A stretch of DNA of 4,866 nt from a virus (taxonomy: Duplodnaviria > Heunggongvirae > Uroviricota > Caudoviricetes): the IMG/VR virus record IMGVR_UViG_2671180415_000012. One strand, written 5' to 3'. A program made the position numbers and the translations under genes. Below the pieces are notes generated by a model that had not been told where the DNA came from, ran no database searches, and worked only from the letters and a program-made list of their open reading frames with translations. Shown here in pieces: positions 1 to 4,866 of this stretch; the stretch's first letter is position 1; each line of letters starts with the position of its first letter.

Positions 1-287
1 AACTAGATCTGAGTGATAAAAGCATATATTTCATAGAGTATCTAAATGACCAAGGACCAAATAGATACTTCCAAAAAGTCATGTATACTAATGGGTTTGA
101 AATTATTACATTAGATAGAACTGTATGGGAATTACGCAGATACTGCCGCTTACTAAATTATCAACTCAAAACCCCTAAAGGTGAGCTAATAGATATGCTA
201 GAAGTAGAATTACGGAAAATTGAGCACTCAAGGAATGTACCGCCACATAAATATAAAATCACAGATGGTTATTTGGAAAAGCGATGA
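1..287 (+). CDS. 3' end of an ORF that is open to the left window edge (about 95 codons visible, stop TGA at 285-287); unknown product, in an AT-rich segment
   Basis: Frame of the listed 81..287 ORF has no stop codon back to position 3, so the ATG at 81 is probably internal. Segment 1-600 is visibly AT-rich compared with the replication gene. No recognisable motif. Confidence 0.4.
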   Translation, partial: LDLSDKSIYFIEYLNDQGPNRYFQKVMYTNGFEIITLDRTVWELRRYCRLLNYQLKTPKGELIDMLEVELRKIEHSRNVPPHKYKITDGYLEKR

Positions 288-614
288 AAAGACAATAAAT
301 ATAATCACGGAAACATTTTAACATGGAAGAATCTATTTTTTGGGAAGACGAAAAAAAACACAATAAAAATTGGACGCTCACAACGTATCAGTTACCCTAC
401 TCAATATATACATCCTGAAAGCTTAGAGTTATTCAATAAATTTTTCAAAACTAACTAACTTATAGCGCTTATCTATTAATCCAGCAAACCAGAAAAGTGT
501 TTGCTGTTATGTACGTAATACTAAGCGACAAATATCCTCTTATGGCTAACTACCTGTCGGCTAAAACTTAATATTCCATGCTGTAATAAAATTTTTGTAT
601 TTTAACCCTTCACG

Positions 615-849: not shown

Positions 850-2535
850 TTAATTTTTGCTATCGTCATTAGTGACCGATACACATGATGGCATCCAGTC
901 TTCTGATTCCTCCGTCAGTGTCACGTTTGAACGCAAACCGTGCTTCGTTTTCCGTTTCATATACTCCCTGCCATATTCCGCCATTGCCCCCGGCATATCT
1001 TTACCGAAGCGCGTCAGTGTTACAGGTTTACCAAACCCATGTGCCCTCATATAAGCCAGATAGGCATGATAGAGATACCTGCGTGGGCTGAATGGCACAA
1101 TTTCAGCATTACCCACTAACAGGCCATCACACATTACCGACGCCATGAGATAGCCGCAGAAGTCCACCAGCGAATCCCCCTCTCGCTTTATCGCCAGTGC
1201 TTCTTCAGATTTCTGCTGCTCATATAACAGGCGTCTGGCTTCGTCCTGGTCAGCAAACCGTGTAAGCAGATGGCGAATCACTACCGCCAGCTCACCTTCT
1301 ATTTTTTCCGCCAGCATTGGGTCGCGTTCGTTCTCCGGTACAACTTCCGAAAAATTGAATATCACCCGACGACGTGAGATCCCCCCGCTGCGGTCACTGA
1401 ATGACATGGCGTTATTGTTAACCGCCAGCACTACTGCCGGAATACGCGTTGAGTAGGGGGCTTTGTGTTTCGGGTCAATTGCCACCTTGTCACCGCCTGT
1501 AATGGCCTTAATCCCTGCCCCATCACCAGCGTAGCGGGTCATATCCGGCATGATAATCAGCGAAAAGCCAACCACTAACGCGCGTTCCCTTGCATCTTCC
1601 AGCGCCTTCATGCTTGCCGATACTGTGTTGGCCTTACCCGCCAGCATGGTGCAAATCTCCGCCATCACGCTTTTACCACTTCCCCCTGGACCTGTTACCT
1701 CAATGAATAACTGCCAGTCGTACCGGTTCGCCAGCACCATGAATAATGCAGCCAGTACGCGATCCGCCTTGCGGTCATTCTCAGCCACCGAACGGCGTAA
1801 CCACTTCCAGAAATTCGGCGCATGTGTTGCCAGCGTTTCCCCCTCTGCTGGTGGGCTGAAAGGTAATTCACTGGCAATTAACAACCAGTCGTTTTTGTTA
1901 TGCTCCCGAAAATTACCTGTTCTGGTATCAAATACCCCGTTACTGAATCCAATCAGGTTACGGGCTGTATTCCCCATTACAGGCAAACTTAACTTCATGG
2001 TATCGACCGCCGATTTAATGGCGTTCTGCGAATAGCTGATCTCCGCATCAATGAAAATCTGTGCCATAGCTCGCTGTAATTCTTTATCCTGTACTGGCTC
2101 CCATACAACGCCGTTGTAATGGTGAACAGTGTCAGAGTCAGCATGAATCGCCAGTTCACCGCCATAATGTGCCAGGAGAACTTCGCCGCGTTGACTTGCT
2201 CCCATCTGGTTAAGCGCCAGTGATGAAGCGTTATCGTCTTTTACCCGCTCTTTTTTCTTTACAGGCAGTTCAACTACCTTTTTCTTTTCCGCCTGCTCTG
2301 CCCGTTCACGTTCCAGATATTCGCGCCAGTTCTCCCGTTTCTGGCTGTGCATTCCTTCAGGGTAATAATCAGCATCCCTGACACCTGCCGCTGCCAGTTT
2401 CTGCCCGATGGTATTAACAAGCCCCGGACGCAATAACCCCGCCTGGTAGAGACGCACCCGATAGCGTCCGTCCGGTACGATTTGCAGCTTATCCAGTTCG
2501 GCAAGTTGTTGTTCTCCAAGCCAGACAGGAGGCAC
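850..2535 (-). CDS. P4 alpha-family replication protein (primase/helicase with SF3-type NTPase core and C-terminal origin-binding region); portion downstream of the N-run, true start lies upstream of the gap
   Basis: 561-aa open frame with Walker A GPGGSGKS and Walker B-like LIIMPD, a layout typical of phage/plasmid primase P4-family C-terminal helicase domains. Followed directly by the matching iterons. The GTG at 2535 is only where the frame meets the N-run, not a real start. Confidence 0.85.
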   Translation of the reverse strand: MPPVWLGEQQLAELDKLQIVPDGRYRVRLYQAGLLRPGLVNTIGQKLAAAGVRDADYYPEGMHSQKRENWREYLERERAEQAEKKKVVELPVKKKERVKDDNASSLALNQMGASQRGEVLLAHYGGELAIHADSDTVHHYNGVVWEPVQDKELQRAMAQIFIDAEISYSQNAIKSAVDTMKLSLPVMGNTARNLIGFSNGVFDTRTGNFREHNKNDWLLIASELPFSPPAEGETLATHAPNFWKWLRRSVAENDRKADRVLAALFMVLANRYDWQLFIEVTGPGGSGKSVMAEICTMLAGKANTVSASMKALEDARERALVVGFSLIIMPDMTRYAGDGAGIKAITGGDKVAIDPKHKAPYSTRIPAVVLAVNNNAMSFSDRSGGISRRRVIFNFSEVVPENERDPMLAEKIEGELAVVIRHLLTRFADQDEARRLLYEQQKSEEALAIKREGDSLVDFCGYLMASVMCDGLLVGNAEIVPFSPRRYLYHAYLAYMRAHGFGKPVTLTRFGKDMPGAMAEYGREYMKRKTKHGLRSNVTLTEESEDWMPSCVSVTNDDSKN

Positions 2536-2541
2536 GCTGTC

Positions 2542-2682
2542 NNNNNNNNNNNNNNNNNNNNNNNNNNNNNNNNNNNNNNNNNNNNNNNNNNNNNNNNNNN
2601 NNNNNNNNNNNNNNNNNNNNNNNNNNNNNNNNNNNNNNNNNNNNNNNNNNNNNNNNNNNNNNNNNNNNNNNNNNNNNNNNNN
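2542..2682. other. Run of 141 N (assembly gap or masked sequence) inside the replication gene
   Basis: Literal n characters in the sequence. Confidence 0.95.
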
Positions 2683-2840
2683 TGCTCTCCAAGCCAGACA
2701 GGTGGCACGTTATCGCCAGCCAGTCGCCCGTCCTGTTCCTGCCACTGTTTCGCATGTGCCCACGCATCACTACCCGCAAAAATGATGACTTCCGTCATTT
2801 TGTCACGCGGCTGGTGTTTTAAATTTGGCGCTTTTTTCAT
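2683..2840 (-). CDS. Probable N-terminal segment of the same alpha-like replication gene (MKKAPNLKHQPRDKMTEVIIFAGSDAWAHAKQWQEQDGRLAGDNVPPVWLGE...), separated from the body by the N-run
   Basis: ATG at 2840-2838 preceded by GGAGAGAG (2855-2848). The peptide ends in DNVPPVWLGE, the same motif that restarts the body after the gap. The frame differs by one nucleotide from the body, so the gap length is probably not exact. Confidence 0.5.
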
Positions 2841-3136
2841 TTCTGCTCTCTCCACGCGGCAATCATGTTTTTCAGTTCCTGTAGTTTTTTATCAACATCC
2901 ATACATGACACATGGTTATTTCTGGAAAGCGGGATTTCCCGCCTGAATCTGCTAATAAAGATCTCCACGTTCAGCGAACTATGAAATGAATAGCCATCAC
3001 GAATAAAATACACACGGTCAAACATCAGTTCTTTTACCGTTACTCTGTTACCGTTCTTATCCAGATAAATAGCGCCGGGGATAATTTTGGGGTGTGCATA
3101 ACCGCTGGCAGTCAAGCCAGATAAATACGTTCTCAT
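2837..3136 (-). CDS. Hypothetical 99-aa protein immediately upstream of, and translationally coupled to, the alpha-like gene
   Basis: ATG at 3136-3134. Its TGA stop (2839-2837) overlaps the alpha ATG (2840-2838) as ATGA. Globular-looking composition. Position matches that of the small cnr gene upstream of alpha in P4, but no sequence identity is claimed. Confidence 0.55.
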   Translation of the reverse strand: MRTYLSGLTASGYAHPKIIPGAIYLDKNGNRVTVKELMFDRVYFIRDGYSFHSSLNVEIFISRFRREIPLSRNNHVSCMDVDKKLQELKNMIAAWREQK

Positions 3137-3142
3137 GATTAT

Positions 3143-3438
3143 TTATCTCAGATTTGAATCAGTATTCGCTTTCTCTATGGCATTTAATGCATCTGTGGCA
3201 TTTTCAATGGTGCACCGTAACGAAATATCAAACTGCCCAAGCATTGCCAGTAACAAGCCAATATTACCCATGTCAATGCGCATAGCCTTTTCGTCATATT
3301 CCTCATTTTCTGACGCATGCCACATCAGGCTACCAATTGACGCAACAGCCATTGATATATTGTCAGTAGCCCCATCCGCAGCGGAATAAACCTTTTTAGC
3401 AATATCATGCTCACAGTTAAAATGCGGATTAATCAGGT
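3143..3438 (-). CDS. Hypothetical protein, 3' portion only (about 98 aa visible, ends ...AIEKANTDSNLR); 5' end lost in the N-run
   Basis: Open frame with protein-like composition running into the N-run at 3439. Stop TAA at 3145-3143, 6 nt before the next gene start, suggesting one operon with the 99-aa gene and alpha. Confidence 0.45.
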
Positions 3439-3633
3439 NNNNNNNNNNNNNNNNNNNNNNNNNNNNNNNNNNNNNNNNNNNNNNNNNNNNNNNNNNNNNN
3501 NNNNNNNNNNNNNNNNNNNNNNNNNNNNNNNNNNNNNNNNNNNNNNNNNNNNNNNNNNNNNNNNNNNNNNNNNNNNNNNNNNNNNNNNNNNNNNNNNNNN
3601 NNNNNNNNNNNNNNNNNNNNNNNNNNNNNNNNN
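3439..3633. other. Run of 195 N (assembly gap or masked sequence)
   Basis: Literal n characters in the sequence. Confidence 0.95.
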
Positions 3634-3690
3634 AACGACACTTGCGGGGCTTCGTCGTTTCAATTGCTGAATTGCATGTATCAGCACTTG

Positions 3691-3745
3691 TGGTATTCAC
3701 ATTACATTTAGGTGAATACCATTTCAAGTCTTTTTTGGTATTCAC
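3691..3745. promoter_or_regulatory. Operator-like repeat set: perfect inverted repeat TGGTATTCAC-N11-GTGAATACCA (3691-3721) plus a third direct copy TGGTATTCAC (3736-3745), overlapping a candidate leftward sigma70 promoter (-35 TTGAAA at 3727-3722, 17-nt spacer, -10 TAATGT at 3704-3699, minus strand)
   Basis: Read directly from the sequence. The repeats lie between the divergent plus-strand gene (start 3789) and the leftward operon. Half-sites resemble the origin iteron (GGTGAATA vs GGTGAACA). Confidence 0.45.
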
Positions 3746-3788
3746 TTTTGTATTACACTGCATCCCGTTATTAATGGGAGGTGCAAAC

Positions 3789-4094
3789 ATGTCCAGGAGT
3801 TCTGTTAACAATAAGTCACAGCAACTGAATGCCAGATTTCCACATGAAGTAGTGAGTGGCATTGAGGCATCCCTACAGCCAGGGGAAACTAAAGCGAATT
3901 TTATAGTTACGGCTGTACGCGGTGAGATCGCCAGGCGCCAGGCAGAAGGAAGTGGAGAAAATCCCCTTGTGTCTTCACTGGATGCCCTAGCTAATGTCGA
4001 ACAAATCGGCATCAAGGCAGCGGAGGAAATCGGGCAGCTTATCACCGTTGCACGCGAAGAACTCCAGCGCCGCAAGGCCAAAGAATCAGAATAA
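3789..4094 (+). CDS. Small 101-aa protein on the opposite strand from the flanking genes; candidate DNA-binding regulator/repressor (ribbon-helix-helix-like N-terminal region is a guess)
   Basis: ATG at 3789 preceded by GGGAGG (3776-3781) with a 7-nt spacer. Cys-free, protein-like composition (MSRSSVNNKSQQLNARFPHEVVSGIEASLQPGETKANFIVTAVRGEIARRQAE...). Operator-like palindrome upstream and a rho-independent terminator downstream. The 3642 start in the ORF track would read through the RBS and is less likely. Confidence 0.65.
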   Translation: MSRSSVNNKSQQLNARFPHEVVSGIEASLQPGETKANFIVTAVRGEIARRQAEGSGENPLVSSLDALANVEQIGIKAAEEIGQLITVAREELQRRKAKESE

Positions 4095-4151
4095 TCACTA
4101 TCAGCGCCGTGGTGTGAGGAACTCCGGCGCATTGCTTTACAGGCGCACACA

Positions 4152-4328
4152 ATGACCAACGAAGAATCAACCAAAAAAACATCACCTGCACGAAAAAGAC
4201 GACGCAGAAAGAAAGAGCATGAATCAGAACGATTCGCGCCGTGTTCTTTTGCCCTTGAGAAGTACCTTAAAGAATACTCATCAAAGGAGAGAGCTTCGCA
4301 GTTATGGCAACGCACTGAAACAGACTGA
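4152..4328 (+). CDS. Possible small basic ORF (58 aa, MTNEESTKKTSPARKRRRRKKEHESERF...), in the same frame as the preceding gene
   Basis: Below the ORF-track size cutoff. Only a weak AGG Shine-Dalgarno. Lies between the 101-aa gene and the plus-strand terminator. May be non-coding. Confidence 0.2.
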   Translation: MTNEESTKKTSPARKRRRRKKEHESERFAPCSFALEKYLKEYSSKERASQLWQRTETD

Positions 4329-4392
4329 TAGCATTGCCCACCAGCCTGATAGCGGCTATCATTGACATGCTTATGTTTAGTGTTTCCAAACT

Positions 4393-4420
4393 GGCGACCG
4401 CCCCAGGTCGCCTTTGTTTT
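4393..4420 (+). terminator. Rho-independent terminator for the plus-strand unit: stem GGCGACC / GGTCGCC, loop GCCCCA, then TTTGTTTT
   Basis: Perfect 7-bp GC-rich hairpin followed by a T-tract, located between the convergent plus-strand gene(s) and the alpA stop at 4440. Confidence 0.6.
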
Positions 4421-4439
4421 ATGTGTCATATGCTCCCCT

Positions 4440-4649
4440 TTACACTGCCTTACCTGAATTAATGCGATCCCGGCTTTTAACCCATTCCATAACCTCGGAC
4501 AGCAGCCACCCTACAGAACGACCGCCCAGATTAAGACGTGACGGAAAGCGCCCTTTTTTCTCCAGTTCGTAACGTGTAGTGCGGCACACTCCAGTTAACT
4601 TACGACATTCATCCTCACGGATTACGCGATCTTCATTTATTTCACGCAT
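4440..4649 (-). CDS. alpA: AlpA-family (P4 Vis-like) phage transcriptional regulator/excisionase-type HTH protein, 69 aa
   Basis: Translation MREINEDRVIREDECRKLTGVCRTTRYELEKKGRFPSRLNLGGRSVGWLLSEVMEWVKSRDRI... aligns by eye with the conserved TG..R.T.Y / FP / LG.RSVGW / EW..R positions of E. coli AlpA. The internal ATG at 4649 is preferred over the GTG at 4736 because it gives the usual family size and places the HTH near the N-terminus. Confidence 0.8.
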   Translation of the reverse strand: MREINEDRVIREDECRKLTGVCRTTRYELEKKGRFPSRLNLGGRSVGWLLSEVMEWVKSRDRINSGKAV

Positions 4650-4763
4650 ACAAAAACCTACATAAAAATTACGTATATAAACTTTTCTCTTAGCTGTAGA
4701 TATATGAGATCGGATATTACTTAGATTCTTTTTCACCTCTTAAATTAAAAACACAACCATGCT

Positions 4764-4866
4764 GGTAATGACTCCAACTTATTGATAGTGTTTTATGTTC
4801 AGATAATGCCCGATGACTTTGTCATGCAGCTCCACCGATTTTGAGAACGACAGCGACTTCCGTCCC
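4764..4866 (-). mobile_element. IS1 insertion sequence, right end (IRR GGTAATGACTCCAACTTATTGAT at 4764-4786), continuing beyond the window
   Basis: The reverse complement of 4764-4866 matches from memory the last about 103 nt of IS1 (...GGGACGGAAGTCGCTGTCGTTCTCAAAATCGGTGGAGCTGCATGACAAAGTCATCGGGCATTATCTGAACATAAAACACTATCAATAAGTTGGAGTCATTACC). Confidence 0.9.
4779..4866 (-). CDS. insB: IS1 transposase InsB, C-terminal end (partial; ...GRKSLSFSKSVELHDKVIGHYLNIKHYQ*)
   Basis: Minus-strand translation ends with the remembered InsB C-terminus. Stop TAA at 4781-4779 inside the IS1 terminal repeat region. Confidence 0.85.
   Translation of the reverse strand, partial: GRKSLSFSKSVELHDKVIGHYLNIKHYQ

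Follow-up and report, generated by a model that had tools for sequence, protein, structure and literature searches.

A HEPN-family accessory gene in the cargo slot of a phage satellite, truncated in a Shigella sonnei-type genome

What is encoded by the AT-rich segment next to the replication module of a phage satellite, and is the open reading frame (ORF) that ends there the natural end of a gene? These questions are raised by a stretch of 4,866 nucleotides (nt), hereafter called the window, from the IMG/VR virus record IMGVR_UViG_2671180415_000012 (Caudoviricetes). A preliminary description of the window, made from its letters, had noticed the C-terminal part of an ORF in a segment whose base composition set it apart, and had likened it to horizontally acquired accessory genes, including the anti-phage defense genes of P4-like elements. 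We find that the ORF belongs to an uncharacterized accessory gene for a solo HEPN protein, located in a known cargo slot of satellites of the phage-inducible chromosomal island (PICI) type, and that the window holds only a truncated fragment of this gene. With a probability of about 0.55, the gene represents a stand-alone accessory of the HEPN ribonuclease (RNase) type that would act as a latent anti-phage effector from the PICI slot, and that has been inactivated in this S. sonnei-type genome.

On the plus strand, a frame that extends past the left edge of the window is open from position 3 to a TGA at 285–287. It comprises 94 codons, close to the ~95 first reported, and is indeed on the strand opposite to the replication operon, convergent with the minus-strand primase gene (stop at 850). 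The chance of a 94-codon open frame at this base composition is ~4e-4 per frame. The same DNA, 99.8% identical, is present in the Escherichia coli genome NZ_CP031134, where it is annotated as WP_029397291.1, a protein of 237 aa named “HEPN domain-containing protein” in RefSeq. Translation, comparison with this coding sequence and family conservation, together with a 180-aa product recorded in Shigella sonnei (see below), identify positions 1–287 (plus strand) as residues 87–180 of the HEPN-family gene, the codons themselves occupying 3–284. The N-terminal 86 residues, including Glu51, Lys55 and His70, are outside the window, while the conserved sites inside it are Arg107-Tyr108 (63–68), Asp124 (114–116), Arg131 (135–137) and Gly175 (267–269).

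The TGA at 285–287, which had been taken for the C-terminal end of the ORF, turned out to be a nonsense mutation. Base-by-base alignment, made at this site for one genome (NZ_CP031134), shows a G at window position 286 where the E. coli genome has a T, changing TTA (Leu181) to TGA. In NZ_CP031134 the frame continues to the natural stop, a TAA at 456–458, and the only other difference between the two copies of the gene, at position 359, is synonymous. Within 226–346, the window differs from every one of the 25 complete E. coli genomes in which the segment is present; the 21 near-identical ones have a single mismatch each over this interval, consistent with base 286. Positions 288–458 (plus strand) of the window correspond to the former codons 182–237 and the TAA, and are now untranslated. 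In all, the nonsense change deletes 57 C-terminal residues that are conserved in the family: Leu192 and Asn196 are conserved at 99% and Trp194 at 87%, and the lost part includes a “WKNxFFG” motif as well as an “HPE” motif.

The possibility that the TGA was a sequencing error was ruled out, since precisely this 180-aa product appears on 103 contigs, under the name “HEPN domain-containing protein [Shigella sonnei]”; the truncated allele is therefore real. The N-terminus of this product is identical to that of the E. coli protein, and the frame is accordingly not interrupted upstream of the window, a point on which the preliminary description had asked for a check. The window itself is 100% identical to S. 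sonnei contigs over 3634–4866 and 99.9% identical over 1–2541. The ratio of non-synonymous to synonymous substitution rates (dN/dS) relative to the Klebsiella homologue is 0.08. In comparisons with homologues of 65–83% protein identity, synonymous sites have reached saturation, and the frame is never disrupted. Judged at the level of sequence, purifying selection on the gene is strong. Since the nonsense change at codon 181 (TTA to TGA) takes away 57 conserved residues, the window copy is probably a non-functional remnant, a dead gene.

Although the preliminary description could not assign a family, the complete protein allowed this to be done. Its AlphaFold2 model (predicted local distance difference test score, pLDDT, 89.5; predicted template modeling score, pTM, 0.88) has the four-helix up-and-down bundle of the HEPN superfamily, and the top five Foldseek matches are all HEPN proteins. 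The Pfam HEPN model (PF05168) matches aa 20–80 of the E. coli protein with 22.2 bits, a borderline score relative to the gathering threshold of 22; among six other members scanned, the score was 24–38 bits in four and 18.6 bits in one, and one had no match. The N-terminal ~130 aa constitute the HEPN domain (PF05168/AF0298-like) and are followed by a family-specific C-terminal extension of ~100 aa. A word-indexed homologue search returned 37 clusters, and an exhaustive profile search returned 1,600 representatives at E ≤ 1e-3 (50% clustering), 411 of them at E ≤ 1e-30. The 150 profile matches listed are nearly all 170–330 aa long (one has 520 aa) and are mostly matched over their full length. 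A sequence profile search of the PDB gave only 1wol, at E = 0.25, and no credible relative of the C-terminal ~100 aa emerged from the PDB or Pfam when this part was searched as a profile of its own. Pfam, NCBIfam and PADLOC have no dedicated model for this ~250-aa family, and the protein had no match among PHROGs, by tblastn in 50,697 phage genomes, or by fold in BFVD.

Across 159 members of the family, with a median identity of 34%, Glu51, Lys55, Arg107, Tyr108 and Arg131 are conserved at 100%, and His70 and Asp124 at 99%. The Ex3[KR] motif is present in helix 2 (Glu51-Lys52-Tyr53-Ile54-Lys55), and His70 is located in the loop between helices 2 and 3. Anantharaman et al. (2013; PMC3710099) described AF0298-like HEPN-T proteins and AbiV that have Ex3[KR] in helix 2, keep the motif arginine and contribute an alternative histidine from an insert between helices 2 and 3, and they proposed this arrangement as an alternative nuclease site. 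The probable active site of the present family comprises Glu51-x3-Lys55 in helix 2, His70 as the alternative histidine, and Arg107-Tyr108.

The canonical Rx4-6H motif is absent: no histidine occurs 4–6 residues after the invariant Arg107 (RYFQKVMYT). Some HEPN families that lack this motif probably act by binding (Anantharaman et al., PMC3710099), and the absence of the motif, together with the borderline Pfam score, would suit a non-catalytic HEPN protein that serves as a nucleotide-, RNA- or protein-binding adaptor or regulator, in which case its slot would have no defense meaning. However, conservation of Glu51, Lys55, His70, Arg107, Tyr108, Asp124 and Arg131 at 99–100% is typical of a catalytic site, and these residues match the alternative-histidine site proposed for AF0298 and AbiV. 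We consider a purely non-catalytic role quite improbable.

The gene resides on a discrete cassette. In a complete relative of the satellite (L001), the cassette is 899 bp long (14688–15586), and its flanks are 95–98% identical to elements that have no HEPN gene. Its right-hand boundary is at 586/587 in the window, so that window positions 1–586 represent the 3′ two-thirds of the cassette. The HEPN gene is the only ORF of the cassette, with 57 bp upstream and 128 bp downstream of it. The guanine-plus-cytosine (GC) content of the cassette is ~31%, and that of the HEPN gene is ~27–35% in the five copies measured (about 30% in each host). By eye, a perfect TATAAT (−10 box) can be seen ~55 nt upstream of the ATG, along with a AGGAAGAG Shine-Dalgarno sequence; a promoter scan of the cassette gave nine promoter-like sites versus 6.4 ± 2.5 in shuffled sequences, which is not above expectation, and a terminator scan gave none. 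The untranslated 3′ tail of the cassette (459–586, plus strand), which ends where homology with HEPN-less elements resumes at 587, includes a hairpin, CAGCAAAC-N9-GTTTGCTG, at 482–506. With a fold z-score of −1.9, it is a weak terminator candidate.

The AT-richness of the left end was confirmed: GC content is 32.4% in 1–586 and 47.7% in 850–4760. The drop does not, however, lie to the left of the iterons, where it had been placed. The iteron and origin (ori) region at 587–849 has 33.5% GC and is as AT-rich as the ORF region, and the GC content actually falls at the primase stop near 850. The break near ~600 is one of homology, not of composition, as 587–860 is common to 594 of 5426 complete E. 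coli genomes and 1–586 to only 25. Thus, the ORF, its AT-richness and its reading as satellite cargo have stood up, while the position of the break, the natural C-terminus and (see below) the P4-like type of the element have not.

Among the ~224 E. coli genomes with the same capsid-side (left) flank, 25 have the HEPN cassette, as expected for the horizontally mobile, AT-rich cargo beside a satellite replication module that had been proposed. The slot in E. coli is usually filled by an 81-aa ORF and ssb on the replication strand, and the HEPN cassette stands in for this pair on the downstream side of the primase gene and ori. The preliminary description had suggested a look at equivalent positions in related satellites, and their contents do vary: the 81-aa ORF and SSB, in some cases joined by PerC or other ORFs; an ssb remnant; HEPN; or, in satellites of other genera, different small AT-rich ORFs or nothing. 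None of these small AT-rich ORFs of other genera is recognized by Pfam or PADLOC. In one element without HEPN or ssb (L007), the slot holds a 429-bp filler (8572–9000), fragments of which match ssb and DUF1441 genes elsewhere; it is best described as a decayed remnant, not an empty site. He et al. (2024; PMC11364771) reported a new accessory region, home to immune genes (Tai), in the middle of PICIs and next to pri on its downstream side. The HEPN cassette lies between ori/pri and the small-gene/ClpP-capsid operon, and its position is that of the accessory/immune region of He et al.

A short plus-strand ORF that RefSeq annotates upstream of the HEPN gene (42 aa at L001 14485–14613; 42–57 aa across elements) was considered as a partner and rejected, since it overlaps a conserved gene on the opposite strand. 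The latter, of 64–69 aa (L007 8273–8482, minus strand; phrog_4934, 1.8e-33), heads the capsid operon, its stop overlapping the ClpP-capsid start, and it occurs in satellites of several genera, including HEPN-less elements. The plus-strand “hypothetical protein” is probably a spurious annotation.

Homologues that are 83% (Klebsiella), 65% (Citrobacter) and 47% (another host) identical are found in this slot too: each lies next to the ClpP/capsid module, diverges from the operon of small genes and ClpP-capsid, and converges on the replicase, even though the replicase (D5 primase or AAA_25 RepA), the integrase and the integration site differ. Furthermore, DNA similarity between the E. coli and Citrobacter elements covers the 5′ end of the capsid gene (74%) and, after ~240 bp without a match, the HEPN gene (68%). 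Such constancy of position would favor a role in the satellite life cycle, in which the protein, as a semi-core partner of ClpP/capsid, would for example be an RNase that would degrade late transcripts of the helper or process satellite transcripts to the advantage of the satellite’s own protease-capsid and TerS. Yet the gene is present in just 25 of the ~224 E. coli genomes with this capsid module, and it is lost or truncated while the rest of the element remains. A capsid-protein scan of contigs yielded 80 loci in other species, mostly full prophages along with satellites, and none of the 80 has a HEPN homologue, which rules out HEPN as a constant companion of the ClpP-capsid module. The Pectobacterium copy (70% identical) stands alone in the chromosome and is not surrounded by a mobile element, and distant members (L099, L100 and L101) are likewise solitary chromosomal genes. 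On this evidence, a life-cycle role is unlikely.

Two unusual members of the family offer leads to its function. One is a metagenomic gene (L113 8001–8756) that is embedded, in reverse orientation, in the portal-capsid-TerS-TerL operon of a different satellite-like element with integrase and Prim-Pol; the other is a metagenomic protein of 520 aa (P0093) in which the family member is fused to a C-terminal DUF5677 (7.5e-21). A further member (L112) adjoins a transposase gene.

The neighborhoods also bear on whether the protein could be an addiction toxin, similar to that of a toxin–antitoxin system, that keeps the satellite stable in the chromosome, with an unrecognized small protein, an RNA or its own C-terminal extension as the antitoxin. 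The distant homologue L100 has a HicB-like antitoxin gene just upstream, and L112 is near a ParE-like toxin. In MNT-HEPN toxin–antitoxin systems, a minimal nucleotidyltransferase (MNT) gene is normally located 5′ of the HEPN gene. Here, ~20 contexts were examined and contained neither an adjacent nucleotidyltransferase gene nor any other conserved neighbor. The HEPN gene is the sole ORF of a cassette that leaves just the 57 bp before it and the 128 bp after it, and the adjoining 64–69-aa gene is found in elements without HEPN as well. An RNA antitoxin fares no better: at E ≤ 1, all that Rfam matched were the ori palindromes, spuriously and to miRNAs, with no RNA antitoxin candidate, and a fold test found no significant structured RNA in the cassette tail. 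We give an addiction function little credence.

The nature of the element that carries the cassette was deduced from complete relatives, L001 and L114, which are islands of ~10 kb. They encode, in order, an integrase, an AlpA-type regulator, Icd-like and DUF4222 genes, and a D5-type primase with an iteron origin, followed by the HEPN gene; beyond the HEPN slot come the 64–69-aa gene, a ClpP-protease/major-capsid fusion (NF045540, 904 bits), DUF1441 (the small terminase; phrog_141, 1.5e-57) and a 93-aa ORF. No portal, TerL or tail genes and no psu, delta or sid were found within these elements. We applied the satellite class definitions of SatelliteFinder (PMC10085698) to the gene content of these relatives. 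In that scheme, P4-like elements have a psu-delta-sid operon with alpA, epsilon, alpha and an integrase; PICIs have an integrase, an AlpA regulator, a primase-replicase, a capsid-morphogenesis gene and a small terminase, and lack tail, holin, portal and connector genes; and capsid-forming PICIs (cfPICIs) have their own portal, head–tail adaptor/connector and large terminase. Although the integrase, AlpA-type helix-turn-helix protein and D5-type primase are present, the element is not P4-like, as had been proposed, because psu, delta and sid are absent; nor is it a cfPICI, because portal, TerL and connectors are lacking. The protease-capsid fusion and small terminase follow the PICI pattern, and as far as its genes tell, the element is a PICI-type satellite.

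Genes of the cfPICI type are present in sister elements (L103, L105–L108) that share the replication module. In other strains (L102–L111), the module of DUF4222, D5 primase and ori is coupled to no fewer than four distinct head/packaging modules, with several integrases and integration sites: the ClpP-capsid fusion with DUF1441; a lambda-E-type capsid with a decoration protein and Nu1; an HK97-type capsid with an S78 protease and portal; and HNH with TerS and TerL. The satellite family is thus an extensive and highly mosaic PICI/cfPICI assemblage, since one replication module has been combined with at least four capsid/packaging modules. Two sister satellites with the same replication module (L104 4055–4930 and L008 4112–4873) carry PADLOC-recognized TIR and AbiJ genes at accessory positions elsewhere in the element. 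The TIR-domain protein matches the PADLOC candidate PDC-S35 (6.9e-67) and lies between alpA and the icd-like gene, and the AbiJ-type protein (2.2e-21) lies beyond the TerS gene; both positions mark further cargo slots in this satellite family.

The reading of the HEPN gene as a stand-alone anti-phage accessory is suggested by the combination of its fold, its conserved polar residues, its sporadic, moron-like distribution and its location in a published immune slot. By analogy with HEPN effectors such as HepS and AbiV, the 237-aa protein would be a ribonuclease that stays latent and is probably a dimer. The C-terminal extension would hold the ribonuclease in check or sense infection. Upon triggering by an infecting phage, the ribonuclease would cut tRNA, rRNA or mRNA and abort the infection, to the benefit of the satellite’s host and hence of the satellite.

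Several considerations weigh against this reading. With the canonical Rx4-6H motif missing, nuclease activity rests on the proposed alternative-histidine site, and HEPN domains can be non-catalytic binding modules (PMC3710099). No trigger, target or self-protection mechanism is known for the family, and a solo, constitutive RNase would need control, of which none is visible. Databases give no link to defense: there was no NCBIfam match, and no PADLOC-DB 2.0 family matched at E ≤ 0.1. Occupation of the same slot down to 47% identity could mean that the function is tied to the capsid module and that the gene is not free-floating defense cargo. Finally, the window copy is truncated, and its activity cannot be assumed.

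A more far-reaching version of the proposal, which we put forward tentatively and hold to be somewhat less probable than its negation, is that the ~250-aa family of HEPN plus C-terminal extension constitutes an unrecognized single-protein abortive-infection system, with an alternative-histidine site and a C-terminal sensor or autoinhibitor, spread by PICIs of Enterobacterales from the slot next to pri. If so, the S. sonnei allele would serve as a natural loss-of-function control. If the full-length protein is an anti-phage RNase, a widespread solo-HEPN family would be added to the catalogue of defense genes, the “alternative histidine” HEPN site, predicted in 2013 and little studied, would receive its first functional test, and the PICI accessory region next to pri would extend beyond Tai. 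The full-length family is a reasonable candidate for experiments. For annotation, two points matter in any case: the element is a PICI, not of P4 type, and the end of the ORF in the window is a lineage-specific nonsense mutation.

The replication origin (587–849, no strand assigned) is AT-rich and was recognized from repeat families D1–D5, inverted pairs and its occurrence in 594 E. coli genomes. Repeat analysis showed more than 10 copies of the 10-mer GGTGAACAGT within 615–842, in direct and inverted orientation, and a 54-nt imperfect palindrome (636–689 / 752–805). This region is conserved satellite backbone, not cargo. It is followed by pri (850–2840, minus strand), which is convergent with the HEPN gene and encodes a D5_N/DUF5906/Pox_D5 primase-helicase; pri was assigned from the ORF list, a Pfam scan of the L001 orthologue and a comparison of lengths with that orthologue. 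The window contains two runs of N, at 2542–2682 (within pri) and 3439–3633. The first is flanked by an imperfect 32-bp duplicate, with “PPVWLGE” encoded on either side, and accounts for the length of pri in the window, 1991 nt versus 1818 nt in L001, a difference of 173 nt. It looks like a scaffold gap that joins overlapping contig ends of two slightly different copies of the satellite, and the window may be a chimeric join at this point.

At its right-hand end (4764–4866), the window runs into IS1, an insertion sequence (IS) with the terminal sequence GGTAATGACTCCAACTTATTGATAGTG...; this stretch matches 5094 of 5426 E. coli genomes. On a 100%-identical S. sonnei contig (L115), the IS1 transposase (InsA/IS1 DDE Pfam matches) directly abuts the AlpA-type regulator gene, and an IS3-family transposase interrupts the primase, part of which is duplicated. 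These observations fit a satellite that is being broken up by IS elements in S. sonnei, in line with the known decay of Shigella genomes.

Outside the satellites, full prophages of many Enterobacterales and Pasteurellaceae (L013–L065; e.g., L013 5674–6126 and 10001–11953) encode a ClpP-capsid fusion that is 49–58% identical to that of the satellite, with a DUF1441 small terminase ~4.3 kb upstream of it. These prophages, of which those with a fusion at 55–58% identity are candidate helpers, are plausible relatives of the helper phage, and they are the likely evolutionary source of the satellite capsid and TerS genes. In the literature, DUF1441 turned up in just three papers, all on phage genomes. 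Several satellites (L002 6760–7353, minus strand; L004–L006, L010, L047 and L086) have a 197–205-aa gene after TerS that matches phage tail assembly protein I (phrog_32, 7.6e-79) and had no match in PADLOC. Given the published PICI Tai systems, it could be a Tai-like interference gene.

Comparison with known systems places the HEPN gene among several partial precedents. In P4, the hotspot between psu and int carries variable anti-phage cargo, including uncharacterized HEPN-domain systems (Rousset et al., 2022; PMC9122126). The present element shares with P4 the concept of variable cargo, an alpha-like D5 primase, AlpA and an Icd-like gene, but it lacks psu, delta and sid, has its own capsid and TerS, and carries its slot downstream of pri/ori. 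The Tai systems (PMC11364771) are closer in setting, being found in the same kind of element and at the same position, mid-PICI, downstream of pri and before the packaging genes, in a region of small genes that DefenseFinder and PADLOC miss. Tai proteins, however, block tail assembly and are unrelated to HEPN.

Among HEPN proteins, the AF0298-like HEPN-T group (PF05168; PDB 2hsb, 1ufb, 1wol and 4nqf) shares Ex3K in helix 2, the retained arginine, the alternative histidine in the helix 2–3 loop and the missing histidine of Rx4-6H. Those proteins are ~120–150 aa long and usually paired with an MNT, whereas the present family is ~250 aa long, has a ~100-aa C-terminal extension of its own and has no MNT neighbor; sequence identity is just 11–18%. 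HepS (PMC13043305), a single-HEPN anticodon nuclease of the Gifsy-1 prophage in which a phage tail-tip protein triggers tRNA cleavage and abortive infection, is the source of our working model: it, too, is a single HEPN protein without a partner gene, carried as accessory cargo on a mobile element of Enterobacteriaceae. The canonical RX4-6H motif of HepS (R100-H105) is missing from the present family, the carrier of HepS is a prophage and not a satellite, and the family gave no HepS-specific match in sequence or fold. A second precedent is provided by lactococcal AbiV (PDB 9bj5/9bj7), a member of a HEPN family that has an alternative-histidine active site, is anti-phage, and acts as a single protein.

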